IMG/VR virus record: IMGVR_UViG_3300036769_000405
DNA from: an uncultured virus (IMG/VR IMGVR_UViG_3300036769_000405)
Taxonomy: Duplodnaviria; Heunggongvirae; Uroviricota; Caudoviricetes
DNA: 64,000 nt
Direction: 5' to 3' (one strand)
Below, piece by piece: positions 3,886 through 54,056 of this stretch. Made by a program: the position numbers and the translations under genes. The number at the start of each line of letters is the position of its first letter. The stretch's first letter is position 1. A model generated the notes under the pieces. That model ran no database searches. It was given only the letters and a program-made list of their open reading frames with translations, and was not told where the DNA came from.

Positions 3886-4595
3886 GAACAATTAAGAAAT
3901 TTGTACTCTCTCTCTCTCTCTCAATTATAGTGCTATTTAACTGCACAGGATGCTCTTTTGATGAAGTAGTAGAAACTATACAGTCTATTCCTACACAGGC
4001 AGAATTGCAGGTAGATAGTTATATTGGGATGAGCGCTAGTACATCAGAAGCTTATACTAAATATAAAAACAAATTAGATAGTAATAACAATACAACTTAT
4101 ACAAGTAATCCTTGGAAAGCAGTTATAGGTATTTTTGATAAAAGTCAAACAGTCAAATTTGATCTTTTTGGGATAAGACAGACTGTGGATGAAACACAAT
4201 TAGCTAATTATAAAATTGAGTATGAAGATAATAAGGCTAATGACTTGACTTATACATCAAATAAGAATAACTATATAACTAAAGGTATTATAGCAGTTTT
4301 AGTTGTAATAGTCCTTCTACTTATCATATTACTTCTACTACGTAGTAGAAGAAAGAAAGTAGCTGGACCTACAGTTGTGGTTAGCCAACCTGCCGCAACA
4401 GTTATACCACAAGTAAATACTACAGGTCAATTAACCGTTGATTACGATTCTTTATTAACAGCTGTTTGTACTAAAGGTGGCGTTTCAGTTGCTGAAGTGT
4501 TACCACATTTTAGTAATTCACGTGCTGCTTATGAGAAAGTTAATATACTTGTAGGAAAAGGTAAAACAGGTCAAGAAATTTTAAACTCTATCTGA
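3882..4595 (+). CDS. Putative lipoprotein with internal TM, paralog of 4649..5440
   Basis: Signal peptide with CTGC lipobox-like Cys; TM GIIAVLVVIVLLLIILLLL; C-terminal VDYDSLL...SRAAYEK...GKG.TGQEILN domain shared with next gene. Confidence 0.75.
   Translation: MRTIKKFVLSLSLSIIVLFNCTGCSFDEVVETIQSIPTQAELQVDSYIGMSASTSEAYTKYKNKLDSNNNTTYTSNPWKAVIGIFDKSQTVKFDLFGIRQTVDETQLANYKIEYEDNKANDLTYTSNKNNYITKGIIAVLVVIVLLLIILLLLRSRRKKVAGPTVVVSQPAATVIPQVNTTGQLTVDYDSLLTAVCTKGGVSVAEVLPHFSNSRAAYEKVNILVGKGKTGQEILNSI
3906..3922 (+). repeat. (CT)8C dinucleotide microsatellite in signal-peptide coding region
   Basis: CTCTCTCTCTCTCTCTC encoding LSLSLS. Confidence 0.9.
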
Positions 4596-5440: not shown

Positions 5441-5461
5441 AAATATTACAAGAGGTGTTGT

Positions 5462-5741
5462 ATGAATATTATAGGAATTGTAGTTATTATTCTGGGTGTG
5501 TATTTCTGTATCAAGTTAGGTTTGAAAGATGGTTTAATCTTTCTTCTTAAAGAAGCTTTATTTCCCAGGATTAGGTGCAATTCTAGGTATGCTTATTGGC
5601 GTGCTCATTGTTCAGGATGATGAGATTATGATTGTTTTAGCAGTCGTTGGACTCATTATCGGTATCATTCCAGTAGTTCTGGACGGTAAGAAGAAATTGG
5701 ATAAGGTGAAAGAACAAGAGCAGAATAATAAGAATAATTAG
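5462..5741 (+). pseudogene. Small membrane protein gene with +1 frameshift at TTT CCC AGG (5561-5569)
   Basis: Frame 0 MNIIGIVV...KEALFP continues in +1 frame as GLGAILGMLIG...KKKLDK, resembling the next gene (GLGATVGLL...KKKIDN). Confidence 0.7.
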
Positions 5742-5750
5742 GAGGCTGTT

Positions 5751-5993
5751 ATGTCCTGGGTTAGTGTTATATGTTTTGTGTGCTTTTTTGCAATAGCATT
5801 AAAAGTAGGAGTTGGTAAGGCTTTTGGTTGGCTTTTCAAATCGTGGTTTTTAGTAGGCTGTATGAGTGGACTTGGTGCTACTGTAGGACTCTTAACAGGA
5901 TTTGGATTTTTTAATGGTAGCGCTGTAGGACTCCTTATTGGAGAGATCTTAGCTTTAAATAATGCTAAAAAGAAAATTGATAATAACAAATAA
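5751..5993 (+). CDS. Small Gly-rich membrane protein
   Basis: 80 aa, hydrophobic, GGAGG SD. Confidence 0.75.
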   Translation: MSWVSVICFVCFFAIALKVGVGKAFGWLFKSWFLVGCMSGLGATVGLLTGFGFFNGSAVGLLIGEILALNNAKKKIDNNK

Positions 5994-6019
5994 TGTAATA
6001 ACTTAAGGAGGTTTATTAC

Positions 6020-6263
6020 ATGTTAATAAGTCTACTTTTTTATACTTATAATTATTCCAGCAATTGCAAGTATTGGTTTAATTACAAATAAGAATATCAA
6101 TGATAAAGTTTTTGGAATTAGTATTCTGATTACTGAAGTTATAAGCATTATTCTTGGTTACTTTATTCATGGTATTGAGGGAATTGCTCTTACTCTAGTA
6201 ATTGAATCACTGATTATTGTTCCAATGCTCGCATTGTTCTGTAGTTATCTTACTGAGAGGTGA
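6020..6263 (+). pseudogene. Small membrane protein gene with +1 frameshift in a T6 run (6036-6041)
   Basis: AAGGAGG SD, MLISLLF, then the +1 frame continues ILIIIPAI...LGYFIHGIEGI, similar to LIGYFISGIDGV of the next gene. Confidence 0.7.
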
Positions 6264-6499
6264 TGTTTATGCTAGATATTATCTTTGAGTTAGGTTATGC
6301 TATAACTCTTATTAGTGTCTTATTTGCAATAATGTTTTTAGATATTAAAATTTTCATACGTATTTTACTTAGTATACTACTTGCAAGTATTTGTTGTTTG
6401 ATAGGTTACTTTATATCTGGAATTGATGGAGTTATTTTAGGAAGTATTACTTTACTTGTTTGGTTTTTATCAATACAAACTTTATGTGATAGGAGTTGA
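6260..6499 (+). CDS. Small membrane protein
   Basis: 79 aa, about 3 hydrophobic segments. Confidence 0.7.
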   Translation: MMFMLDIIFELGYAITLISVLFAIMFLDIKIFIRILLSILLASICCLIGYFISGIDGVILGSITLLVWFLSIQTLCDRS

Positions 6500-26900: not shown

Positions 26901-26914
26901 ATATAGCTTCCATT

Positions 26915-26942
26915 TATTTCTAAAGCATTGCATATAAATTTG
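26915..26942 (+). promoter_or_regulatory. Putative promoter motif TATTT-N11-CATATA-N4-TG
   Basis: Same spacing as 10747 and 48621. Confidence 0.5.
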
Positions 26943-26959
26943 AATAAGTATTAATTCTT

Positions 26960-27230
26960 TCTTGGATTACCTTCTTCCCCTAAAATCCACTTCAGAGGTA
27001 TGGTCACTAACCCTGTCATACCTCATCCTCCCTGTTGTTAATCAAGTTGTTAATATTATATAACTACTTAATTAACCATAGGATTCCACGCCTATGGCGA
27101 ACTTCTGATGAATCATAGTGACCACATGCTATGATAACATTGTAGAATAACTCCTAGCGGTGTGCAGGATTCTCTCATACCTGCACATCTCTAGGTGCTA
27201 CTCTGACCTAAATAAATGAAAGGAGGAGGT
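26960..27230 (+). ncRNA. Candidate structured 5' leader or ncRNA (about 5 consecutive hairpins)
   Basis: GAGGTATG/CATACCTC, CCATAGG/CCTATGG, ATCATAG/CTATGAT, TGTGCAGG/CCTGCACA stems in a gene-free 330-nt gap. Confidence 0.55.
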
Positions 27231-27234
27231 TGTT

Positions 27235-27435
27235 ATGTCATTTCGTGAATGGTTATACGATCAGCTTCTCGCTGATGATTTAATCGATGAAGATATGTAT
27301 ACGGCAGATGACATTAACGAAGATATGATGTTGACTGAGACGGATCTTGAAAGTTACGATATTGATATCTACAGAGATCAGTTCGAAGAACATTGTAAGT
27401 CTGTTGGTGTTGAGCCGGAATGGGACGTAGACTAA
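27235..27435 (+). CDS. Very acidic small protein (possible DNA mimic)
   Basis: 66 aa with 23 D/E; strong AAAGGAGGAGGT SD. Confidence 0.75.
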   Translation: MSFREWLYDQLLADDLIDEDMYTADDINEDMMLTETDLESYDIDIYRDQFEEHCKSVGVEPEWDVD

Positions 27436-27575
27436 CTTAAGTATTATACTACGTCCGAGTAAGTCGCCTAATTGGACATAGTTAACTTGAGCCTTTACGC
27501 CACACAATTCCCTTTTATGGGGCACATTTTATCAAAACATTTCCCAGTATGGGACACATTAAAGGAGAACAAATT

Positions 27576-28865
27576 ATGCAGATTTCAGCAAGAGGTGCGC
27601 AGAAGAAGCGCGAAGAAAGTAAGAAATTGGAAATGTATTCAAAGCAGTGGTTACCTGGTGACACACTCAGGGTTTTCTACCCTATCTTTTGGGTAGAGGG
27701 GCATCCGGAAATTGCAGTAGGTGCTATTTGGGGACACAGTGTTTCCGATATTAAAGCACTTAAACTTAAAACTGCATTTATTCCGTCCACAACAGAATTT
27801 GATGAAAACGGTATGCCTATTGGCACTCCGGATGTTACGTATCAGTTCAGCCAGATCGCACGTGTTTTTGTAAATGGTGCAAAGATGATTGAGGAAGCTC
27901 AGATCTCAAAGAAAAACTGGCCTACTGAAGCAGCCCGCAAAGATGCATTGATGGAACTTGAGAAGAAGTATGATACCAAGAACAACCAGAATGCGGTTCG
28001 TCCTATTATTGGACGTGCACAGTATTACATCAGTACTGAGGTTATCTCCATGAAGCTGGTAAATGATCAGCCGAATTTGGATTCACTCAAGTTATCTTCA
28101 GCCCCGCTGTCAAATCAAACAATTAACAAACTGTATGCACTCATGGCAGATCAGAAATACGCCCCTGTAGAGGGTGATGAATTCTTTGAAGTAGAATGGA
28201 AGTACCCTACAGATTCAGACAAAGCATCATCAGCACGATCCGCAACAGTAAATGGGTTAACAGCTGAATACAGATCACCTGTTGCCTATCCGGATGCCTA
28301 CAAGACATTGTCAGGACTGTTTGGTATGGTTGCAAGAGATTCCGAAACAATTACAAGACGTGCTACTAGAATGATCGATCCGGCGCGTGTAAGAGCCGCT
28401 TTAACCCAGTATGCTTTTCTGTCCAGTGAGTATCTGGACGTTGCATCAGAAGAAGATGAAGAAATCTTGTTAAATCATGTTGATCTTATCCAGGAGTTGG
28501 ACGTTACCCGTGCGCTTACAAATCAGGAATTGGTTCAGAAGATTCAGCAGGCAGTTGCCGAGGCTGACATTAAGAGACCAAATGTTCCCGAAGAAATTCC
28601 AAGTATCACCGAACCTGCAACAGCATCATCAGCTATTCCGGAGAATCCTGCAACCGCTGTGGATTCGGCAATGCAGTCAGTACCTGATCTTTCATTAGTA
28701 GCTGGTGCACCGACTATGCAGTCTTTGATGACAGAAGCAGCACAGCAGCCAGCAGCTACACAGACAGTAGCTCCGGCATCAATGCAGTCGCTTCTGAACA
28801 ATCAGAACAACATCAGTGGAGACGAAGCCATGTTGGAGGATGTAGACCTTACATCTATGGTGTAA
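27576..28865 (+). CDS. Putative ssDNA-binding/recombination protein
   Basis: TLRVFYP near the N-terminus (like phage gp32-type RFLP), Ala/Pro linker, acidic-hydrophobic tail DEAMLEDVDLTSMV, position before Rad50/Mre11. Confidence 0.45.
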   Translation: MQISARGAQKKREESKKLEMYSKQWLPGDTLRVFYPIFWVEGHPEIAVGAIWGHSVSDIKALKLKTAFIPSTTEFDENGMPIGTPDVTYQFSQIARVFVNGAKMIEEAQISKKNWPTEAARKDALMELEKKYDTKNNQNAVRPIIGRAQYYISTEVISMKLVNDQPNLDSLKLSSAPLSNQTINKLYALMADQKYAPVEGDEFFEVEWKYPTDSDKASSARSATVNGLTAEYRSPVAYPDAYKTLSGLFGMVARDSETITRRATRMIDPARVRAALTQYAFLSSEYLDVASEEDEEILLNHVDLIQELDVTRALTNQELVQKIQQAVAEADIKRPNVPEEIPSITEPATASSAIPENPATAVDSAMQSVPDLSLVAGAPTMQSLMTEAAQQPAATQTVAPASMQSLLNNQNNISGDEAMLEDVDLTSMV

Positions 28866-28883
28866 AATTGTAGATAGGAGGTA

Positions 28884-28915
28884 TGCGGAGGGTTTTGATT
28901 TCTTAACCCTCCGCA
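28884..28915 (+). promoter_or_regulatory. 11-bp stem-loop between an AGGAGG and the Rad50-N start codon
   Basis: TGCGGAGGGTT/AACCCTCCGCA. Confidence 0.6.
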
Positions 28916-28924
28916 ATTCTTAAT

Positions 28925-29878
28925 ATGGTACTCAAACAAATTATAACAAGAAATATACAGAATCACCGGGAGGTTGTGATCGATTTACCTCCTACTGGTT
29001 TGATCGTATTTACAGGAGCCAACAGTAATGGTAAATCCGTTATTGTTAAAACAACTCGTTCCTTATTGAATGGAGACTTGCGAAAACCTAGAAAGCGCGC
29101 CTCTTTAGTTAATCGAAATGCTACATTTGGTGAGATTACATATGTACGAGATGATGATATGCGTTTAACATGCCACATTGCACGTGAAGCCAGTATGACT
29201 TACTTTAAGTTGGAAGTACCTGGTGAAGATGCAATTGTTCGTTATCTTGCGGATAAGTCATACTCAGAACTTATGCATACTTTTGGTTGGCATTATGATG
29301 AACAAACTGGTATTAGTTTGAACATCGCTGAAGAGGAAGATGCTTTGTTGTTCTACAAAACGAGCAACAAGATTAATGCAAGTATCTTGGAGACTGCAAC
29401 AACAGACTCTACGGCAGACAAAGTATCTGAGGCATTCGAAAATACATTAAAGGATGCCCGATCATTTCGTGAACAATGTATACAACAGGTTAGAACTTAT
29501 TCTAGTTCACTAAATGAATTAAAGGTAGAACCTATTGCTCCACTAATCGAAAAGAGTGAGAAATTATCTTACTATTTTAGAAACTTGGAGGGAGTTTATT
29601 TACCTAATTTACCTGAAATTCATGCTGTACCTGTCGTGCATTTTGCAAATGTATATATGCCGGAATTACCTGTTATCAAAGCAATTCCTAGAGTTCATTA
29701 TGCTAGCATTTATTCTCCTAGCATTCCTGTAATACGTTATCCGAAGATCATGAATATCTCATGTCATATTCCGGATATTATCTCTGTAGCTTCAGAGTTA
29801 AAGGCACTTCGTGAACACAAGTGCCCTACATGTGGAAGGGGGTTTGATTGTGCTTGCACGAATACTATTTCTGACTGA
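28925..29878 (+). CDS. Rad50/SbcC-like ATPase, N-terminal half
   Basis: LKQIITRNIQNH, Walker A GANSNGKS, short coiled coil, C-terminal CPTCGR zinc hook; no Walker B. Confidence 0.8.
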   Translation: MVLKQIITRNIQNHREVVIDLPPTGLIVFTGANSNGKSVIVKTTRSLLNGDLRKPRKRASLVNRNATFGEITYVRDDDMRLTCHIAREASMTYFKLEVPGEDAIVRYLADKSYSELMHTFGWHYDEQTGISLNIAEEEDALLFYKTSNKINASILETATTDSTADKVSEAFENTLKDARSFREQCIQQVRTYSSSLNELKVEPIAPLIEKSEKLSYYFRNLEGVYLPNLPEIHAVPVVHFANVYMPELPVIKAIPRVHYASIYSPSIPVIRYPKIMNISCHIPDIISVASELKALREHKCPTCGRGFDCACTNTISD

Positions 29879-44720: not shown

Positions 44721-47700
44721 ATGAAGAGAAATCTTAAAAAGATTATTACTTATATATGTCTACTTGCAGTTCTCGTAACTACTTTACCATTTCAAACAAT
44801 AACAGTAAATGCTATGTATGCAGATAGGGATGAGTTCTATAACGCTCTGTTTGCTACAGCAGCGGCTCCTTATTTGATGACTTGTCAGCCTGATGATGCT
44901 ATTATTCTAACGAGTAAAGTTGAATTAGTATCAGGTGATCAATCAGTAAACTATGATGGTGGTGTTTTTGATCTGCCAAGATTATCTTACAAGTACCATT
45001 ACGAGATATTTGGAAACAGTAATTATTTCCTCGGTGATACAATTTACCCTACATTATGTATTTATTCAGCAGCTAAAGATGGTTCGTGCACATTACGTAT
45101 TGTAAGTGATGCTGAAAGTAAAGTAGTGTTTTCTTGTACAGTATCTATTTCACCTGATACACCAAATTGGATTGAAGGTATTGACTATTGGTACCCGTCA
45201 CATGATCTTGCCGAAACAGATACACGACCAGCTGTTACTGCTAAGAAATTTGAAGACTGCTCTGCTGAAGTTGTACAGGGTATAATCGATGCTGGTGGTA
45301 AAGCACGTATGTACAATGGAACACCAAGTGCATACGACGCTAAAATGCATACAAATGCTATCGTTATGGATTCTTATACAATTACTCCTGAGTACTTTTG
45401 GGATTGTTTGTCTGGTTATTCATTTGATTTCTATAATGCAGCTGATGAAGCTTATGCTTACACACCACTTGAAATTTCTGATAGTAACTTCACATCTAAG
45501 TACAATATTAAAGATTATATTGGAGCAATAGATGATGGTTTAGGTGCCCGTGTTGGTCTTCTATTCGGAGGAAGTTTGTTAGAAGGCTGTACTTATAACA
45601 ATAATACTGGTGATTGTTCAACAATACTTACATCGGGTGTTACTTACCCACTCTACTATTTTATTGCAACATCAGCAGGTTGTTATTGGAGTAAGATTAC
45701 AGATACAACAGCTGTATCATCAGAAGAATTGAAATCAACTTCAACAAGTGCTCCTACAATGAGTTGGGCAGCTAATCAGTATTACAATCTTGAGACAGGT
45801 GTTACTACTACAATGGCTGGTATTACATCAGATGTTACTGATGATTCATTGGAATATGGTCCAATCTCTTTTGATGACTTTTACACTTCCAATTATAATT
45901 CTAGTGGTGGATTATCAATGAGATCAGGCAAGTATCAGTTTATGCACAGTAATACAACTACTGTTACTGGTATAAACGTGTACGCTAATTCACTTATGTA
46001 TAACGGTGTTATTCCACACTATGGTACATTAACTCTTCAGCAGAAACCTAATACTCTAACGATCAATTATTATTACAAGACGCCTACAGCTACAACTTGG
46101 AGATTACTTGATACGTTGAATTATACAGCTTCTACTTTTACATCAAGTGATTATCGTGCAATGCCTTCTATCGATAACTATGCTGCTAATTGTTGGTACA
46201 CTGATACTGACTTAACAACGAAGTTTGATCCATCAACAATGATTGATACAACAAAAGATTCAACGATATCACTTTATGGTAGTTATACATATGATGGTCC
46301 AACTTATAGTGTTACTTATTACAATAACCTATCTGGTGCTTCATCTACAGCAACATATAATCTTGATCAAAAGCCTACATTACCAGATAACCCAACAGCA
46401 TCTAATGGTTATTCTTTCAAGAATTGGGCAATCGTTAATAAGAAAGATGATGAGTCTGGAACTGATTATATAGCTTCTACATTTAGTCCTGAGGGTAATG
46501 CAAGTTATATATTCAAAACAATGTGGGATGTTGAGGGAATTATTGTTCGTGTGTTAACATCAAAAACCAACTACTACGTTGGTGATAATATAGATACATC
46601 ATTGTTACAGGTATGGGTCCAGGACAGTAGTGATGTGAACGATACCAGAATACTTGAATCAAATGAATACACTCTCAGTTCTACCAAAATAAGTAAAACT
46701 GGTATAAATCAGTTTACAATAACTTATACAAAGACTGGTGCAACTGCAATATGTGAACTTAATGGATTAGAAGTAATTCCTGTATCAATTTCAGCTACTT
46801 ACAAAGGTGGAGATACAGTTGTCGGAACTGAATTAAAACCAAGTGATTTTAACTGTGTTATTAATTACAATAACGGATCTAGTGTAGCTATTTCAGATTT
46901 CACAATTTCACCAACGACCATTAGTACTGTTGGGAATAATCCAATCACAGTAGCTTATACTGATTACACAACAAGTGTTTCTATAACCGGTATTAAAGAT
47001 GATACAAAGACAGCAACTTTAAAGTCTATTTCAGCTTCTTTTACAGGTAATCAACCTTATGTTGGTAGTACGATTTCGGCTAGTGATTTACTTGTTACAG
47101 CTTTCTATTCTGATAATACAAGTAAAACTTTAGCCTCAACTGCATTCACATTTAGCCCTAGTAAATTCAATACAGCTGGTATGCAATCTATTTCTGTTAG
47201 CTATAGTGGATTAAGTACATCTGTTCTTGTATCTGTAAAAGATAGTAGTAACAGTAGCTCAGGATCAAACTCTGGAAGCAGTGATTCTGATAGTTCAGGT
47301 TCTAGTGATAACAATACATCAAGTTCTGGAAGTAATACATCAAGTTCTAGTAATACCAATACATCAAGTTCATCAGGATCTAGTGATTCAGATGTAATTG
47401 CCGGAGACTCTATATTAGATTCATTATTCAGCGGATTATTTGATGACTTGTTTGATATGTCAAACTGGGATATTGATTATTCAGATTCTAGTTATGATTA
47501 TTCAGATTCAAGTGCAACATCAAACTCAGGAGGCAGTAGTTCAAACTCATCAAGTTCAAACTCATCAAGTTCAAACTCTAGTTCTTACACAAGTTCTGGA
47601 TTGAGTTCAAGTTCTGCATCATCAAGTGATAAAGGAACATCACCTGGATATCTACACGCTGCAAATATCCTAACAAATACAATGGGATTGGCTAATGCTA

Positions 47701-48599
47701 CTAGTTCTTCTATTGTTGATATCAAGTCTTATTTGGAAGCTGCTGACAGTAATTCTACTGTATATATAACTCTAACTAATGGTGCTAATGGTAATGATAT
47801 AACATCTGATATGTTTAAAATAATCAAGGATAAGAAGTTAAATGTATACCTTGATATGATATCATCTTCAACAACATCATCAGTAGCAAATTGGTTAATA
47901 TCAGGTGAATTACTTGAAGATACAGCAAGTGCTTTAAACCCTAACATTTCTTTTGAAGTTGAGGATAAGGCTTCTGATAGGCTTGTTTATTTCGCCACAG
48001 CAGGTACGGTATTTCCTACAGGTTTAACCTTAACAGTTTATCCTAATATCTCATGCTATGGTTCTGGTGAACTGATTCGTCTCTACAGTTGTGATTTGAG
48101 TAAGAATAATGCTCATTTGTTATCAACATTTACATGGCAGGATTCCGTTAATAGTATTGTTATGGATGTTTATACAACACCTAACTTGTGCTTATCAAAC
48201 TCATTGTTAGCTTATAACGATGGTGCTTCATTGAAAGATGAAAACGGATTGCCTAGTGTAGACGATACTGTAGAAACTGACGAAGATACAGATAGCTCTT
48301 TTGACTGGGGAGTCGAAGACGAAGAGGAACCCTTTGATTGGGGGGATAGTGAAACTGAATCCCCAAATCTTTCCAAGGTTCAACCTGTATTGATAATTTT
48401 AATTGCTGTTGCCGCTTTATCTGTACTTGGTGGTTTAGGTACTTTCTTAATACTACATAGTAAAAGGAAATCTATATCTATTGATAATAGCTTTAATGCT
48501 TTTATGGGTGATGAAGCTTCTGATAATTTAGAAGATTATGAAGAAGCTTCTGATGAATCTGAAGATGAAAATGACATGGATAATTTTCCAGAAGAATAA
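44721..48599 (+). CDS. Large membrane-anchored surface protein (B-repeat and Ig-like domains, Ser-rich stalk)
   Basis: Signal peptide; GYSFKNW; three YVGD/VVGT/YVGS Ig-like repeats; poly-Ser; C-terminal TM and acidic tail. Confidence 0.8.
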   Translation: MKRNLKKIITYICLLAVLVTTLPFQTITVNAMYADRDEFYNALFATAAAPYLMTCQPDDAIILTSKVELVSGDQSVNYDGGVFDLPRLSYKYHYEIFGNSNYFLGDTIYPTLCIYSAAKDGSCTLRIVSDAESKVVFSCTVSISPDTPNWIEGIDYWYPSHDLAETDTRPAVTAKKFEDCSAEVVQGIIDAGGKARMYNGTPSAYDAKMHTNAIVMDSYTITPEYFWDCLSGYSFDFYNAADEAYAYTPLEISDSNFTSKYNIKDYIGAIDDGLGARVGLLFGGSLLEGCTYNNNTGDCSTILTSGVTYPLYYFIATSAGCYWSKITDTTAVSSEELKSTSTSAPTMSWAANQYYNLETGVTTTMAGITSDVTDDSLEYGPISFDDFYTSNYNSSGGLSMRSGKYQFMHSNTTTVTGINVYANSLMYNGVIPHYGTLTLQQKPNTLTINYYYKTPTATTWRLLDTLNYTASTFTSSDYRAMPSIDNYAANCWYTDTDLTTKFDPSTMIDTTKDSTISLYGSYTYDGPTYSVTYYNNLSGASSTATYNLDQKPTLPDNPTASNGYSFKNWAIVNKKDDESGTDYIASTFSPEGNASYIFKTMWDVEGIIVRVLTSKTNYYVGDNIDTSLLQVWVQDSSDVNDTRILESNEYTLSSTKISKTGINQFTITYTKTGATAICELNGLEVIPVSISATYKGGDTVVGTELKPSDFNCVINYNNGSSVAISDFTISPTTISTVGNNPITVAYTDYTTSVSITGIKDDTKTATLKSISASFTGNQPYVGSTISASDLLVTAFYSDNTSKTLASTAFTFSPSKFNTAGMQSISVSYSGLSTSVLVSVKDSSNSSSGSNSGSSDSDSSGSSDNNTSSSGSNTSSSSNTNTSSSSGSSDSDVIAGDSILDSLFSGLFDDLFDMSNWDIDYSDSSYDYSDSSATSNSGGSSSNSSSSNSSSSNSSSYTSSGLSSSSASSSDKGTSPGYLHAANILTNTMGLANATSSSIVDIKSYLEAADSNSTVYITLTNGANGNDITSDMFKIIKDKKLNVYLDMISSSTTSSVANWLISGELLEDTASALNPNISFEVEDKASDRLVYFATAGTVFPTGLTLTVYPNISCYGSGELIRLYSCDLSKNNAHLLSTFTWQDSVNSIVMDVYTTPNLCLSNSLLAYNDGASLKDENGLPSVDDTVETDEDTDSSFDWGVEDEEEPFDWGDSETESPNLSKVQPVLIILIAVAALSVLGGLGTFLILHSKRKSISIDNSFNAFMGDEASDNLEDYEEASDESEDENDMDNFPEE
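47538..47578 (+). repeat. 15-bp tandem repeat AGTTCAAACTCATCA x2.7
   Basis: Encodes SSNSS units of the Ser-rich stalk. Confidence 0.8.
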
Positions 48600-48620
48600 T
48601 TTTTAATTTTCAGATTCTTT

Positions 48621-48648
48621 TATTTACTTAAGCAGTTATATACTTATG
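48621..48648 (+). promoter_or_regulatory. Putative promoter motif TATTT-N11-TATATA-N4-TG
   Basis: Same spacing as 10747 and 26915. Confidence 0.5.
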
Positions 48649-48665
48649 AAGGAGGCGACATCGAA

Positions 48666-49220
48666 ATGATTGAGCAGTACGTTCAAGCAAATAGCTTGTC
48701 TTGCCTTATGAACGAGGATAGAACAATCGAGATTATTCCTGAACCGTTTCGTATGCAAGGCTCAGTTTCATTCCGTGTCACCTACTCCGAGTATAGTAAC
48801 TATATTCTTTCATTACCTAAGGATACTGGCGTTATTTTAATGTCAGAACTTTCGTATTTACGAAACCTTGCATCTTCAGATAACCCGAAGCTGTACTCTT
48901 GCTTTTTAAAAGACTTAGCATTTGCGATATGTAAAGAAGTATGGTTTTCAGAGTGTTATGCAAAAGATGCTTCAATAATCCTACCTGCGTCTTACATAAG
49001 TAAGGTTATGACTGTTTCAGCCATTTTACAATCTTATCTATATTGTAGAGACGTAGAAAGTGAACTTTTAGGTAAAGTACAATCCGCAGGGTTTAAACCA
49101 TTTAAGACACAGCGTATACAAAATATACGGCTAGTTCAGTTAGCGGTCGTCTTGTATTCAATGTCTAAAGTTCCAAATGGTGTGGAAGAGGTTAATCTTG
49201 TGTACGACTTAGTCACCTAG
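48666..49220 (+). CDS. Hypothetical protein
   Basis: 184 aa, AAGGAGG SD. Confidence 0.7.
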   Translation: MIEQYVQANSLSCLMNEDRTIEIIPEPFRMQGSVSFRVTYSEYSNYILSLPKDTGVILMSELSYLRNLASSDNPKLYSCFLKDLAFAICKEVWFSECYAKDASIILPASYISKVMTVSAILQSYLYCRDVESELLGKVQSAGFKPFKTQRIQNIRLVQLAVVLYSMSKVPNGVEEVNLVYDLVT

Positions 49221-49240
49221 AAAAATTTTAAAATCCGAAT

Positions 49241-49544
49241 ATTATTTTTCTGGTGATTAAGTATATACAAGTGATGAGCGTTAGTAAAGCTAACACAAAG
49301 CTCAACTTCTCAGAGAATGGCGACACTTTGAGAAACATCTACAACTTAATATGTACGCTTTATTGCTTGGCGGGTTGTTTACAACAAACAATAAAACAAA
49401 GCTAGGAGAAGGTTAGGCTATCTTACCTTAAGTCACACGTCACACTCTAAGTCTGTCACATAGTGAATAGAATATGTAGTTCCTGCATCCCTGACTCTAC
49501 AAAATGATAGTGCTTACAAATTTACCAAATGGAGGTACATGTAA
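49241..49544 (+). promoter_or_regulatory. Promoter-like motif plus structured 5' leader of the 410-aa gene
   Basis: TTTTC-N11-TATATA-N4-TG at 49246-49273; stems TGAGC/GCTCA, TTCTCAGAG/CTTTGAGAA, TTTATTG/CAATAAA, AAGGT/ACCTT. Confidence 0.55.
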
Positions 49545-50777
49545 ATGAATTCTCAGAAGAAAGCAGAATTAGCAACATTCCTTATCAAGAATAAGGGAAT
49601 CCTGTTACCTGAAGATCAGGACGCTGAAATCAAAAAGATGTCTGCACAGTGCCCGGAAGCTACGGCTACCGAGAAAGGTCTCGTTGATGAAGTCGACAGA
49701 GCCTATGAAGTTATGATCATTATGAATGGAACCGCAGGAGATCCGACCGGAACACAGGTACCGGTTGCTACACAGCCGACCAGCAGCATTTCCGCTGCAG
49801 AAGAACTGCAGATCAGCAAGACTCTGCTTAAGCAGGGACAGGAGCGTGCCGCAGTTTCTGCCAACACTACAATCGATTCTTACGTTTTTGATCGTCCGGA
49901 CCCGGCAACTGTTATCAAGGCTGGAACCAAGGGACAGATCGTTGAGAAGTCTTGGAAGTCTTTCCAGGAGAAAATTGACAAAGGTACTTACGTAGTTCTG
50001 CCGGATGACGGTGCAGATGTTGAGGAAGGTAAGCGGATCGCTTCTACCACAAACTACAACGCTTTAAAGGCGGCTTTTGAAGCAGGATCGCCTGTTGACG
50101 TTTACATTGGTGGATTAAACAAGAAACCTATCGGCTATATCGTAGTAAAGGGTAGTGCAACTGGTGCCGGCAATGCACCGGTTCAGATGACGCGTGAGCA
50201 GCTGGAGCAGTTTACCATTATGGAGACCGCTGGTTACATCGTAGCTTCTGAAACGAAGCCGGGCGTTAAGCTTAAGTACATGAATGCAAAAGCAGATCCG
50301 ACCAATCCTGGAAAGTCCATCCCGGGCAAGACCATTCTGGCAGATGCCAACAAGAAGGCTGCTGTTGAGGCGGGATCCTACGATGTTTCTCGTGAAGCAA
50401 CGAGTGAAGTTGTTTCTACCGGATGTAAGTCCGCTTTACAGATCAGAGTAAAAATGCCGAGCAAGACTGCAAAAGACGGTGTAACACCGCTTACGAAAAC
50501 TGTACGTATTTCCCTTAAGGCAGATCTGCCGACTCTTACAAGAAAAGCAAAGTATGTTGATGTGTTTGGTACCGGTGAGCGTGAATCCAATTCTGACCTG
50601 ATCAATGTTCCGACCGGAGAGCAGGCAAAGAAGATCTCTGAGGCTCAGAGAAATGCCATCGCAACTCTTCGTCAGAAAGCGAATGATCCGGCAACTGTTG
50701 GAGACCTTGCAGCTATCGCTGACAAGCTGGCAGCTTTCGATGCTCCGGCTTCTCAGGCTCCTGGTGCAGTTCTGTAA
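49545..50777 (+). CDS. Orphan 410-aa Ala/Lys/Thr-rich protein, probably abundant
   Basis: GGAGG SD; codons visibly shifted to CCG/CTG/ATC/ACC/AAG relative to neighbours; no signal peptide or TM. Confidence 0.85.
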   Translation: MNSQKKAELATFLIKNKGILLPEDQDAEIKKMSAQCPEATATEKGLVDEVDRAYEVMIIMNGTAGDPTGTQVPVATQPTSSISAAEELQISKTLLKQGQERAAVSANTTIDSYVFDRPDPATVIKAGTKGQIVEKSWKSFQEKIDKGTYVVLPDDGADVEEGKRIASTTNYNALKAAFEAGSPVDVYIGGLNKKPIGYIVVKGSATGAGNAPVQMTREQLEQFTIMETAGYIVASETKPGVKLKYMNAKADPTNPGKSIPGKTILADANKKAAVEAGSYDVSREATSEVVSTGCKSALQIRVKMPSKTAKDGVTPLTKTVRISLKADLPTLTRKAKYVDVFGTGERESNSDLINVPTGEQAKKISEAQRNAIATLRQKANDPATVGDLAAIADKLAAFDAPASQAPGAVL

Positions 50778-50789
50778 TTAACACATGAT

Positions 50790-51660
50790 CGCGGCGTGCG
50801 GGGTACAGGTGTTACCTCGCACCATATTAAAATAAGAAAGCACACTGAGTACTCTATTAGGCTAACGTCCGTCCATAAAGCCATAAATTAGGTATTTTGT
50901 TATCTCCCAACAACGTATACCTAACGTTAGCCTAACAGAGTACTTAGGTGCTCTAGGTACCGACTACCGGTGAGTTAAGAGTACTCTGGTTGGTATCTTA
51001 TAAGGCATTATTCGTCACATACAGGTTGCGACGTACGCCTATTAAACGGTGTTAGTTACCGAGCCATACTTATCGGTAACATTGTGCTAGCCGACGGGCT
51101 GATTCGGCGGCGTATGAAAAGGCGAAGTGGGCGGCCGGGAAACATGCCCCAGGTAAAAGGTTAAGTCGCCGTACCTAATAATCGGCGGCGTATGAAGCGC
51201 GGCGATACCACCAGGTGGTGAGATCCGGGTGGAATGCCGTATAAGCGAAGAGTCTGACGCAGTAGGGGAAATTGCCTCTACTGTTGGGTCAGACTACTAA
51301 TTAAGATGTCCGCAAGGTTGCGGATTGGTGGTATTTGTAGCCACCATGCTTGATGTATTGGGACAGAACGGAATAGTGTGGCTGCTAGATACTGCAGTCA
51401 TGTTGTTTAGTCACCCTGAACATCGTGGTATTGATGAGACTCTCTAGCCATTATGCTATTATAGTAGTCACAGCTGCTAGATAGCTGTTAGGGACTGTGA
51501 ACCTAACTATCTGTTCAGCTTCTATGTGTAACTTAGTTGGAAGATACACTGGATGCTGAGTCCAACAAACAGATTTTAGCGTTAATTCGCACTGGTACAA
51601 CTTTGAGTTCTCAATATAAAGCGGTAGGGGCTTTTCATCGGCTCCCTACCGCTTTTTTTC
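50790..51660 (+). ncRNA. Candidate large highly structured ncRNA (~870 nt), family not recognised
   Basis: No ORF; GC-richer; more than 10 consecutive stems with G-U pairs on the + strand; internal repeats; ends in a terminator. Confidence 0.75.
51618..51660 (+). terminator. Rho-independent terminator
   Basis: AAAGCGGTAGGGGC-loop-GCTCCCTACCGC followed by T7. Confidence 0.9.
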
Positions 51661-51726
51661 AATAAGTATACTGTTTAGTTTTGATAACCCCGTTATTAAA
51701 TCTAACACTTATTTGGAGGAAACTTT

Positions 51727-52878
51727 ATGAAAAGACCTGCTACATTTGAAGATATTAAAGGACATACTTGGCTTGTTCAATATCTCAAAGAAAACATTAC
51801 AAAAGGAACATTACACCACTTTTTGATATTAGAGGGGCCTGAAGGTCTTGGTAAGACATCTTTAGCTGATTTAATAGCACTCTCATTAGTTTATGGATTA
51901 GAGCCATCTAAAGCACGCGATGATGCTTATAAAGAGGTTGTTGTTAAGAAAGGTACTAATAATAATATTAAAAGATTTGAGTGTTCTGTCGACGGTGGTA
52001 AAGACGTTGCACGTTTAATTAAAGATGAAATGAATACAACGTTTACTGTTAAAGGTCCTAAAGTTATTATATGTGATGAATGCCATGGATTAACTGAACA
52101 GGCACAAGATGTGTTTCTGGCTGAGACTGAATATATCGGGGATGATGTTTACATCATCATGCTGACAACTGAGATCACAAAGTTAAAAGCTTCGCTAAGG
52201 TCTAGGGCTGTTCCGATTCACTTGAATCCATTGAAACAGTCTGAAATGGTTTTAGTACTTAAAGCAGAAGTAACAGCAAGAAATTTAAAGATACAGAATG
52301 AAGATATAGTCCTAGGTATGATTGCTGAATGGTCAGAATGCAAGCCAAGAACTGGATTAAATATTCTGGATGCGTTCGGAAATGGTTCTGCAGTTTCTAT
52401 GAATGCAATACGTGAGTTGATCGGTTACTTGGATATTAGAGATGTTGTTCCACTATTGGCTTCATTATCTGGCTCTATGACATTTGGATTAAGTTATATT
52501 TCAGAAATGCAGGTAAACGCCTCATTAATTAACAACGTTATTGAATGTATTAATTTGAAATCTGGAAATGGTTCTTACAAGATTAAAATGCAAGATGTTC
52601 CATACGTTAGAGATCAGCTTGTTAATGTTTCTGTTGAGCAGCTTGTAACATTCCTTTATGGAATTACAAAGAGTAGTAAGTTAACAAGGACATTGATTAT
52701 TAACGCTTACATTAGTGCACATGAGTCAGCACAGTCTTTAGTTGATTCAGATACTCATGAGACTCTAGCCTTGGAAAACATTCAGCGTTCAAATGTTCAA
52801 CTTGAAGTTGAGCATTCAGCAATGACAAAAGCACCTACACTGGATGACTTACTTATAAGTAGTAAAATAATACAATAA
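51727..52878 (+). CDS. DnaX (gamma/tau)-like clamp-loader AAA+ ATPase
   Basis: RPATFEDIKGH, GPEGLGKTS, ICDECHGLT..AQD, LRSRA; lacks the four-Cys Zn module. Confidence 0.85.
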   Translation: MKRPATFEDIKGHTWLVQYLKENITKGTLHHFLILEGPEGLGKTSLADLIALSLVYGLEPSKARDDAYKEVVVKKGTNNNIKRFECSVDGGKDVARLIKDEMNTTFTVKGPKVIICDECHGLTEQAQDVFLAETEYIGDDVYIIMLTTEITKLKASLRSRAVPIHLNPLKQSEMVLVLKAEVTARNLKIQNEDIVLGMIAEWSECKPRTGLNILDAFGNGSAVSMNAIRELIGYLDIRDVVPLLASLSGSMTFGLSYISEMQVNASLINNVIECINLKSGNGSYKIKMQDVPYVRDQLVNVSVEQLVTFLYGITKSSKLTRTLIINAYISAHESAQSLVDSDTHETLALENIQRSNVQLEVEHSAMTKAPTLDDLLISSKIIQ

Positions 52879-52891
52879 GGAGAATATTGAA

Positions 52892-53677
52892 ATGAAAAAA
52901 TTTATTTCTATACTAGTTGTTCTTAGTATTCTTTTAACAGGATGTAGCTTTACAAAATCTAACTCAGACAGCATTAAGTTGTCTGATGCTACATACACAC
53001 TTGAAATACCAGTAGCAGATGGTAAAGTGTTTACAATAGAAGTACCTACAGATTTACAAATTATGGCAACTGACAATAATGTATACTTTAAATTTAACAA
53101 TGATATTGTTATGTACGCTACTCACAATACAGAGTCTAGCTCTGAGGTAACCAAGTATGCTGTATCTAGACAGGTAGAAGAACGTTATATATTCGCTAGA
53201 TGTGATGGTGCTGTGAACAGACTGAAAGAGACCTTTGGAAACGGTATTATTAAAGATTGTGATGTAAAACTCTACATTGAGACTGAACTTAAAGAATTTC
53301 CTGAGTACATGGATATGTCCGATGATATGATACTGTATGATAATAATCTTTATATGCCAGACGGTTGTGAGGAAAACACAGTTAATATCTACACTTCCGA
53401 ACTTCTTTGTGATGGCGAATCATGGTTGGAGAGTTGGATCATGGATGGTACTTATGATGATATTAAAGATACACTAGCAACATATTGTATTACTAATTCG
53501 GGATCAGATAAGATTAATTATTGGTACAAAGATGATAACATTGTTATTATGTATTCCGGAGATAATATTGTTGCAGCCAAGAAATTACGCTATAATGAAT
53601 GGTATGTGTATTCCGGAAGTGCTATGTATGAAGATTACATACTAACTGGTGTAGATAAAGTACACAGTAGTATTTGA
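52892..53677 (+). CDS. Putative lipoprotein
   Basis: MKK-hydrophobic-LLTGC lipobox. Confidence 0.8.
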   Translation: MKKFISILVVLSILLTGCSFTKSNSDSIKLSDATYTLEIPVADGKVFTIEVPTDLQIMATDNNVYFKFNNDIVMYATHNTESSSEVTKYAVSRQVEERYIFARCDGAVNRLKETFGNGIIKDCDVKLYIETELKEFPEYMDMSDDMILYDNNLYMPDGCEENTVNIYTSELLCDGESWLESWIMDGTYDDIKDTLATYCITNSGSDKINYWYKDDNIVIMYSGDNIVAAKKLRYNEWYVYSGSAMYEDYILTGVDKVHSSI

Positions 53678-53687
53678 GGTACTGTTT

Positions 53688-54056
53688 ATGATAATTATAT
53701 CAGGGATCAAAGATATTGACTTTGCTCAATATGATCAAGTTTGGTACATTACCAACAACAACCCTAACATGCGAGTAGGTGCTCAGCATCATCAAGAGTT
53801 AGCACCACCTGCAAATTACTATTACCAGTATAGACAAGGTGCTATCTCATTAGACTCTCTACTTAATGAATATGGAAGCAAATTATGGTCTGGTGTTTAC
53901 AAAGAAGCTATTGATAACTTGATTGGATTGTCTGAGTCAGAGTTATGGATTCAGTTAGTTTGTTATTGTACTAATTATAATAAATGTCACCGCTATGTAT
54001 TATATAGATATCTTAAAGAGATTTATGATAAGGTAGTTTGTCTTGATATTCAGTAA
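53688..54056 (+). CDS. DUF488-family protein
   Basis: ELAPP and LVCYC....CHR motifs. Confidence 0.75.
   Translation: MIIISGIKDIDFAQYDQVWYITNNNPNMRVGAQHHQELAPPANYYYQYRQGAISLDSLLNEYGSKLWSGVYKEAIDNLIGLSESELWIQLVCYCTNYNKCHRYVLYRYLKEIYDKVVCLDIQ

Follow-up and report, generated by a model that had tools for sequence, protein, structure and literature searches.

The stretch between a 410-aa gene and a clamp-loader gene in the DNA of an uncultured virus (IMG/VR IMGVR_UViG_3300036769_000405) is probably a new, expressed large phage RNA candidate. We analyzed 64,000 nucleotides of this DNA (64 kb, hereafter the window), which read as part of the genome of a large, uncultivated phage, and we propose that positions 50778–51670 are the non-coding 3′ part of a phage transcription unit that would release a stable RNA of ~650 nt with a role at the RNA level. 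We regard this whole proposal as evenly poised between right and wrong. An earlier note had described a novel large functional RNA of ~870 nt at this place; the stretch was found to be non-coding, structured on the + strand, without an Rfam family, and present in RNA libraries, all in keeping with that description, whereas the 870-nt unit probably gives way to a processed part of ~650 nt. The features referred to below, in the order of their positions, are the following.

48571–48600, + strand: promoter-like site (ATGACA, 18 nt, AATAAT) with 10/12 matches, the candidate start of the unit
48666–49220, + strand: 184-aa gene, the first of the unit, with no match among Pfam or PHROG families; RNA-library contigs cover it at 100% identity
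49545–50777, + strand: 410-aa gene, GC 48.5%; its stop codon marks the start of the structured stretch
50778–51670, + strand: the whole non-coding, hairpin-dense stretch, with 18 hairpin loops in the centroid structure
50796–50822, + strand: GC-rich hairpin at a distance of 19 nt from the stop codon, in both the minimum free energy (MFE) and centroid structures
50839–50952, + strand: long hairpin, dG −49.8, whose lower stem of 28 bp has one bulge and one mismatch and whose upper stem has 12 bp
50940–51592, + strand: separately assembled part in RNA libraries, the candidate mature RNA (~650 nt), whose end at 51592 is fixed
51104–51196, + strand: GC-rich core with the exact 15-nt direct repeat TCGGCGGCGTATGAA, copies at 51104–51118 and 51182–51196
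51618–51659, + strand: intrinsic terminator, a 12-bp perfect stem (51618–51629/51644–51655) and then 7 T at 51653–51659
51727–52878, + strand: clamp-loader gene (phrog_5846 at 3.9e-37; DNA_pol3_delta2), the downstream neighbor that fixes the synteny

All ORFs of at least 90 aa that are not overlapped by a longer ORF lie on the + strand of the window, and the replication genes among its contents encode RNase H, a DNA polymerase exonuclease subunit, primase, helicase, exonuclease, and the clamp loader. The nearest GenBank relatives of the helicase are found in SPO1-like Bacillus, Listeria, and Moorella phages and in faecal phage records, at an identity of only 22–25%. ARAGORN found no tRNA or tmRNA gene in the 64 kb. 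The structured stretch spans the interval from the stop codon of the 410-aa gene to the terminator just ahead of the clamp-loader gene. A 122-aa protein encoded at 53688–54056, within the replication module, matches DUF488-N3a ("active DUF488-N3 subclade", 2.2e-07).

The absence of a gene from the stretch, as had been claimed, is borne out by its longest ORF, which is 42 aa under table 11. Recoding of TAG, TGA, or TAA as a residue opened no long frame in 50778–51670; the longest recoded frames were one of 119 aa on the − strand, with three recoded stops, and one of 122 aa that starts inside the upstream gene, with four. Translations of two open frames in the RNA were searched for gene calls in relatives, where one frame had no candidate and the single match of the other, a repeat-rich 1196-aa protein, was set aside as irrelevant. 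The stretch is also GC-richer than the window (45.8 versus 35.5%), with a core of 56–57% GC over 51078–51277. It is probably the largest gene-free stretch as well: the interval 5441–6455 is longer at the 90-aa cut-off, yet is filled by four hydrophobic ORFs of 50–80 aa. These ORFs (52, 50, 80, and 79 aa) form a run at 5462–6499 in which Shine-Dalgarno-like sequences are present, and from their sequences they look like small membrane proteins.

The MFE of the + strand is −335.3 kcal/mol over the 893 nt, compared with −270.6 ± 5.2 for dinucleotide shuffles (z −12.6; 0/20 shuffles as good). Folding of the − strand is weaker (−285.9, z −6.8) but still better than that of its shuffles. A coding control of similar GC content, 49700–50592 (893 nt), gave z −0.12 with 9/20 shuffles as good, and another intergenic stretch, 26901–27548, gave z −3.6. 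When the fold was computed in sliding windows, the stretch had the lowest energies among the 15 lowest-z windows listed, a noisy scan with eight shuffles per window. The dense base pairing described in the earlier note is reflected in an MFE structure in which 63% of bases are paired (283 pairs), and every stem named there was recovered from the inverted-repeat list and the MFE and centroid structures, including the 24-nt stem 50845–50868/50924–50947, which is 92% complementary, and the stem 51251–51261/51285–51295, which was confirmed among the inverted repeats. The closing T7 terminator was likewise found, as a 12-bp perfect stem and 7 T. Many stem imperfections had been read as G–U pairs pointing to selection on RNA rather than to a DNA cruciform; 37 of the 283 MFE pairs are G–U and the + strand folds better than the − strand, both of which agree with that reading.

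Two hairpins at the 5′ end of the stretch may be relevant to how an RNA could be separated from the upstream message. The GC-rich hairpin at 50796–50822 is possibly a 3′ protecting stem for the mRNA. The 28-bp lower stem of the long hairpin at 50839–50952 surpasses both the ~20 bp of nearly perfect double-stranded RNA that we took as the mark of an RNase III substrate and the roughly two helical turns that RNase III needs, and the hairpin is proposed to be a putative processing site for a double-strand-specific (RNase III-type) enzyme, with cleavage predicted from stem length only. In the GC-rich core, 51165–51171 (GUCGCCG) is able to pair with either copy of TCGGCGGCGTATGAA, so alternative pairings are possible; direct repeats in the stretch are two-copy only. 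A CsrA-type sponge was considered and ruled out since only one of the nine GGA motifs in the stretch is unpaired.

No recognized family accounts for the stretch, which is what the earlier note had supposed. Rfam 15 at the gathering score gave 0 matches over the whole window, and with E up to 10 over 50600–51800 it returned only hairpin-level matches to miRNA and sRNA models, four of them on the terminator hairpin and one on 50834–50959. In both of these scans the covariance models of GOLLD, with its conserved 3′ region, of ROOL, with its pseudoknotted core, and of OLE went unmatched, and neither Rfam nor ARAGORN matched tmRNA, tRNA, RNase P, 6S, SRP, group I or II introns, or self-cleaving ribozymes. 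As far as covariance models can tell, GOLLD, ROOL, OLE, tmRNA, RNase P, 6S, introns, and ribozymes are excluded. A blastn search of the stretch against 50,697 GenBank phage records gave no match, and a literature word search found no paper describing such an RNA, which is not proof of its being unpublished.

Fourteen public sequencing runs contain the stretch, and all 14 are metatranscriptomic RNA libraries of 2025, 12 from gut metagenomes (animal gut by record) and two from freshwater; at least 0.67 of the sampled words were found in 9/14. The runs are coded as 14 studies, though their common year and type mean that they may be one campaign. Four of them (X1, X2, X9, and X10) were compared over 48000–54000 as contigs, which give no strand, start, or level, and DNA may occur in RNA libraries. 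The upstream contigs of X1, X2, and X9 begin at 48635, 48651, or 48661 and reach 50783, 50844, or 50849 with 0 differences from the window; a contig of X1 starts at 48661, spans both genes and the stop codon, and reaches 50849. The distal part was assembled separately in these same runs, as contigs of 50940–51592 (X2), 50956–51592 (X1), and 50974–51592 (X9), again with 0 differences each. Contig depths were 13–25 over the genes and 50–70 over 50940–51592, but with one figure per contig they cannot rank the parts. No contig covered 50850–50939 or 51593–52087 and hardly any covered 48000–48400 or 52088–54000, gaps that are not usable as evidence for processing, for silence of the neighbors, or against DNA contamination.

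In all three of the four compared runs that have the 3′ part, the distal contig stops at exactly 51592. The X1 and X9 distal contigs run past this position into 22–23 adapter-like letters, AGATCGGAAGAGCGTCGTGTAG(G), which we take to be the start of an Illumina adapter; on that assumption 51592 is a true fragment end, at which many library fragments ended. The position lies two bases past a small hairpin (51579–51590) and 26 nt before the terminator stem. These data point to a discrete RNA end at 51592, upstream of the terminator stem that starts at 51618, and the end in the X1, X2, and X9 contigs is thus distinct from the terminator, as is expected of a processed end. The ends at 50844/50849 and 50940 misfit a 2-nt 3′ overhang in the long stem, although contigs cannot show ends. 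In X10 there are three 151-nt contigs with three differences from the window, two at positions unpaired in the whole-stretch MFE (51047 and 51094) and one, 51210, that changes an A–U pair to G–U; the variants are compatible with the fold, and three are too few to weigh. A search for a discrete transcript had been suggested as a check. The stretch is present in RNA libraries and has a fixed end, and since the contigs cover ~650 nt and stop before the terminator, the molecule is probably a processed, 3′-UTR-derived RNA and not a primary transcript of 870 nt with its end at the T-run.

The candidate start of the transcription unit is the promoter-like site at 48571–48600. It is the best of seven such sites in 48400–51900, compared with 7.5 in shuffles, which makes it a weak indication; the first RNA contig starts at 48635–48661, just past it, although contigs cannot show a start. 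A sigma-70-type search found no promoter-like site in 50778–50950, and phage promoters may differ from this type. Directly upstream of the unit, 44721–48599 encodes a 1292-aa protein with Big_3 Ig-like domains. Near the 3′ end of that gene, short RNA contigs of 4/4 runs match ~32 nt at 48538–48570 with two differences and then diverge, which suggests a low-complexity repeat common to other sequences.

The 410-aa protein that precedes the stretch has 53 homolog clusters with 35–100% identity on contigs of up to 278 kb, one of them labeled a Lachnospiraceae MAG; its closer relatives are 66–74% identical. None of the 53 clusters has a Pfam domain, and the protein itself belongs to no PHROG or Pfam family. 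An AlphaFold2 model built from 30 sequences has a pLDDT of 83.9 and contains a pair of strands of 19–26 residues, and Foldseek gave no match for it in PDB or BFVD at E up to 0.001. The best VIA-align Z was 4.6, for the N-terminal helices, and ANTAR-domain proteins made up four of the 12 top matches; this lead was dropped because 0/30 family members match Pfam ANTAR at E up to 1. The gene product may be abundant and may have a new fold.

We propose the following course of events. The unit would run from the promoter-like site at ~48571–48600 through the 184-aa and 410-aa genes and ~890 nt of hairpins to the terminator at 51618–51659, and the stretch would have been selected to fold as + strand RNA. 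The primary transcript would be cut in the 28-bp stem of 50839–50952 by an RNase III-type enzyme, separating the mRNA, with the GC-rich hairpin 50796–50822 near its 3′ end, from the distal RNA, which would then be cut or trimmed to 51592, two bases past the hairpin 51579–51590. A stable RNA of ~650 nt would thereby be released and outlast the mRNA, and, most speculatively, it might act during infection as a scaffold, an assembly, or a host-factor decoy, much as has been suggested for other large RNAs of phages, beyond any protection of the mRNA. The X1 contig that bridges the stop codon as far as 50849 is compatible with co-transcription, while contigs show no single transcript.

The stretch could instead be a structured 3′ UTR only, in which case the hairpins would protect the 410-aa mRNA from 3′ exonucleases and insulate it from the downstream replication genes, and the 650-nt species would be a nuclease-resistant decay product. 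We consider this somewhat unlikely. Its position between stop codon and terminator, the lack of a promoter-like site at its own 5′ end, and the contig that bridges the stop codon are what such a 3′ UTR would have, and the stretch is dispensable in two related loci (L001 and L002, described below), where the terminator directly follows the gene. The window and a third locus, L003, have no detectable primary sequence in common, which fits selection for being structured over selection for a specific fold. Nonetheless, ~890 nt and 18 hairpins go far beyond what 3′ protection needs, and L002 manages with one terminator hairpin. The distal part was assembled apart from the mRNA in 3/3 runs that have both, and its fixed end at 51592 falls short of the terminator, so that protection of the 3′ end does not come from the terminator hairpin. 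Because the structure is larger than protection needs and its end is not the terminator, the released RNA with an RNA-level role is narrowly favored over pure mRNA protection. If the stretch is only a stabilizing 3′ UTR, it is still an extreme case.

A metagenome scan with the 410-aa protein yielded four loci (L001–L004), of which L004 ends within the gene and the other three reach past it. L001 and L002 are near-identical, carry a 410-aa homolog of 48% identity, and have the order 182-aa ORF, 410-aa homolog, clamp loader, with only ~105 nt and a plain terminator (6200–6305 in each) between the last two; the element is therefore dispensable in that lineage. The third locus, L003, whose 410-aa homolog is 35% identical, has 917 nt at the equivalent site, ORF-poor, its one ORF call being of 75 aa. 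Where the window has the 184-aa gene, L001, L002, and L003 have an ORF of 182 aa, and the clamp loader is 61–62% identical to the homologs of these three (61% for L003). The L003 stretch folds with −405.6 on the + strand (z −14.4) and −334.6 on the − strand (z −9.4) and has no match in Rfam. The site is thus structured in two of three lineages, and the clade is polymorphic, in these sequences, for presence or absence of the large structured stretch.

The two structured stretches gave no sign of homology. MAFFT alignment of the window with the L003 stretch showed nothing, common k-mers were at chance level, and the Smith-Waterman score of 56 compares with 55.7 ± 8.6 for shuffles (94/200 shuffles as good); RNAalifold found no common fold for the cores, and a single-sequence covariance model of 51160–51300 had no match in the L003 stretch. 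Collinear motifs seen by eye (GCGGCG.A.GAA and ATGCC..GTATAAGC) were not counted since all of these homology tests were null. In L003, positions 4401–4584 hold three hairpins (4401–4430, 4472–4503, and 4555–4584) with differing stems and the common hexaloop GUCAAA, which in the predicted structure look like a thrice-repeated putative binding site; no repeated loop of this kind is present in the window RNA.

Outside these loci, tblastn of the 410-aa protein against GenBank phages gave no match, nor did IMG/VR scans with the protein, its 30-sequence alignment, and the two-copy RNA motif, nor profile searches of species-genome contigs with the 410-aa and clamp-loader alignments. The clamp-loader alignment found only two distant loci in IMG/VR, L005 (24% identity), in which the gene order differs, and L006 (39%). 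As far as the scans reach, the clade thus appears to be absent from GenBank phages, IMG/VR, and species genomes.

The variable presence of the stretch among relatives and the unrelated sequences at the equivalent site in the window and L003 could also be explained by insertion at a hot spot, the inserted DNA being the decayed remains of a mobile or selfish element, or else filler rich in hairpins that different phages picked up independently, with no function for the phage, and the stretch is indeed GC-richer than the surrounding genome. The adjoining 410-aa gene is equally GC-rich, however, and exceeds its flanks in 4/4 loci, so the high GC of the stretch is no sign of foreign origin. The stretch matches no intron, ribozyme, or other mobile-RNA family even at E 10, contains no transposase or other ORF, lacks terminal repeats, and has no second copy in the window, and neutral filler would not keep z-scores of −12.6 and −14.4 with a bias to the sense strand. 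We therefore judge an insertion to be quite improbable.

Least probable of all is a replication element acting as DNA (an origin or a cruciform- or hairpin-extruding site, with transcription incidental or priming or activating the origin), for which the setting among replication genes (the clamp loader follows the stretch, and genes for helicase, primase, exonucleases, and RNase H occur at other places in the window), a 114-nt near-palindrome in the stretch, and the − strand that also beats its shuffles (z −6.8) could be cited, but against which stand the sense-strand folding bias in both the window and L003, 37 G–U pairs that would be mismatches in a cruciform, the absence of an iteron array (only two-copy repeats) and of the AT-richness of an origin in a stretch GC-richer than the genome, the lack of anything at the site in L001 and L002, and a GC-skew profile of the window without a turn at the stretch, which leans against an origin.

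With the release of a ~650-nt RNA kept as the preferred reading, a more general one can be offered for the site itself, although we consider it doubtful. The place 3′ of the conserved, expressed 410-aa gene would be a slot for different giant structured RNAs (~650–900 nt, unrelated between the window and L003), each cut from the operon transcript and accumulating as an RNA-only particle or a host-acting decoy. If this were true, the slot would add one or more new classes to the ornate phage RNAs already represented by GOLLD and ROOL, with 3′-UTR processing as their origin in place of a gene of their own.

To our knowledge, only a few non-coding RNAs longer than 500 nt have been described from bacteria or phages. 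For the proposed processing, one parallel is phage T7, whose early transcripts have RNase III processing hairpins between genes. As in T7, a long, nearly perfect hairpin lies between functional parts of a polycistronic transcript, where a cut would separate the products and leave structured ends, but the stem in the window is longer (28 bp with a 12-bp upper stem) and its cleavage is predicted. Stable non-coding RNAs processed from the 3′ end of an mRNA, without a promoter of their own, offer a second parallel to what is proposed here. Bacterial 3′-UTR sRNAs are mostly under 200 nt, and flavivirus sfRNA is left behind when an exonuclease stalls; for the window RNA the proposed cut is endonucleolytic.

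In size class (roughly 600–900 nt), in very dense secondary structure, and in being phage-encoded, the stretch is like GOLLD and ROOL (PMC12286853). GOLLD expression rises during phage lysis, both RNAs often lie near tRNA islands, and their structures are RNA-only cages (PMC12286853). The window stretch differs in that it lies in the 3′ UTR of a unit that codes for proteins, matches no Rfam model at any E up to 10, and has no tRNA gene within the 64 kb, tRNA proximity being typical rather than strictly defining for GOLLD and ROOL (PMC12286853). For Staphylococcus phage K (Kayvirus), abundantly transcribed long non-coding RNAs that adjoin tRNA genes are described (PMC9241854). Both are cases of a long non-coding RNA in a large Bacillota phage, with the window helicase nearest to SPO1-like Bacillus and Listeria phages (only 22–25%); the phage K RNAs are set apart by the adjoining tRNA genes, of which the window has none (PMC9241854). 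The stretch stands in kind with GOLLD, ROOL, and the phage K RNAs, being large, structured, phage-encoded, and expressed, but is a member of none of these families because their models do not match and no tRNA genes are nearby. Outside every Rfam 15 family, found in gut RNA libraries, and with one molecule end mapped, the candidate offers structure probing and cryo-EM something definite to work on. With it, the large phage RNAs would reach into a deep-branching clade of large, uncultivated gut phages, whose contigs are as long as 278 kb and whose helicase is only 22–25% identical to that of its nearest GenBank relatives.

Elsewhere in the window, a second locally GC-rich gene, encoding 438 aa, lies at 27549–28865, with 44% GC in 28001–29000 against ~35%. 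The 650-nt stretch 5′ of this gene holds a 66-aa ORF and is only moderately structured (z −3.6).
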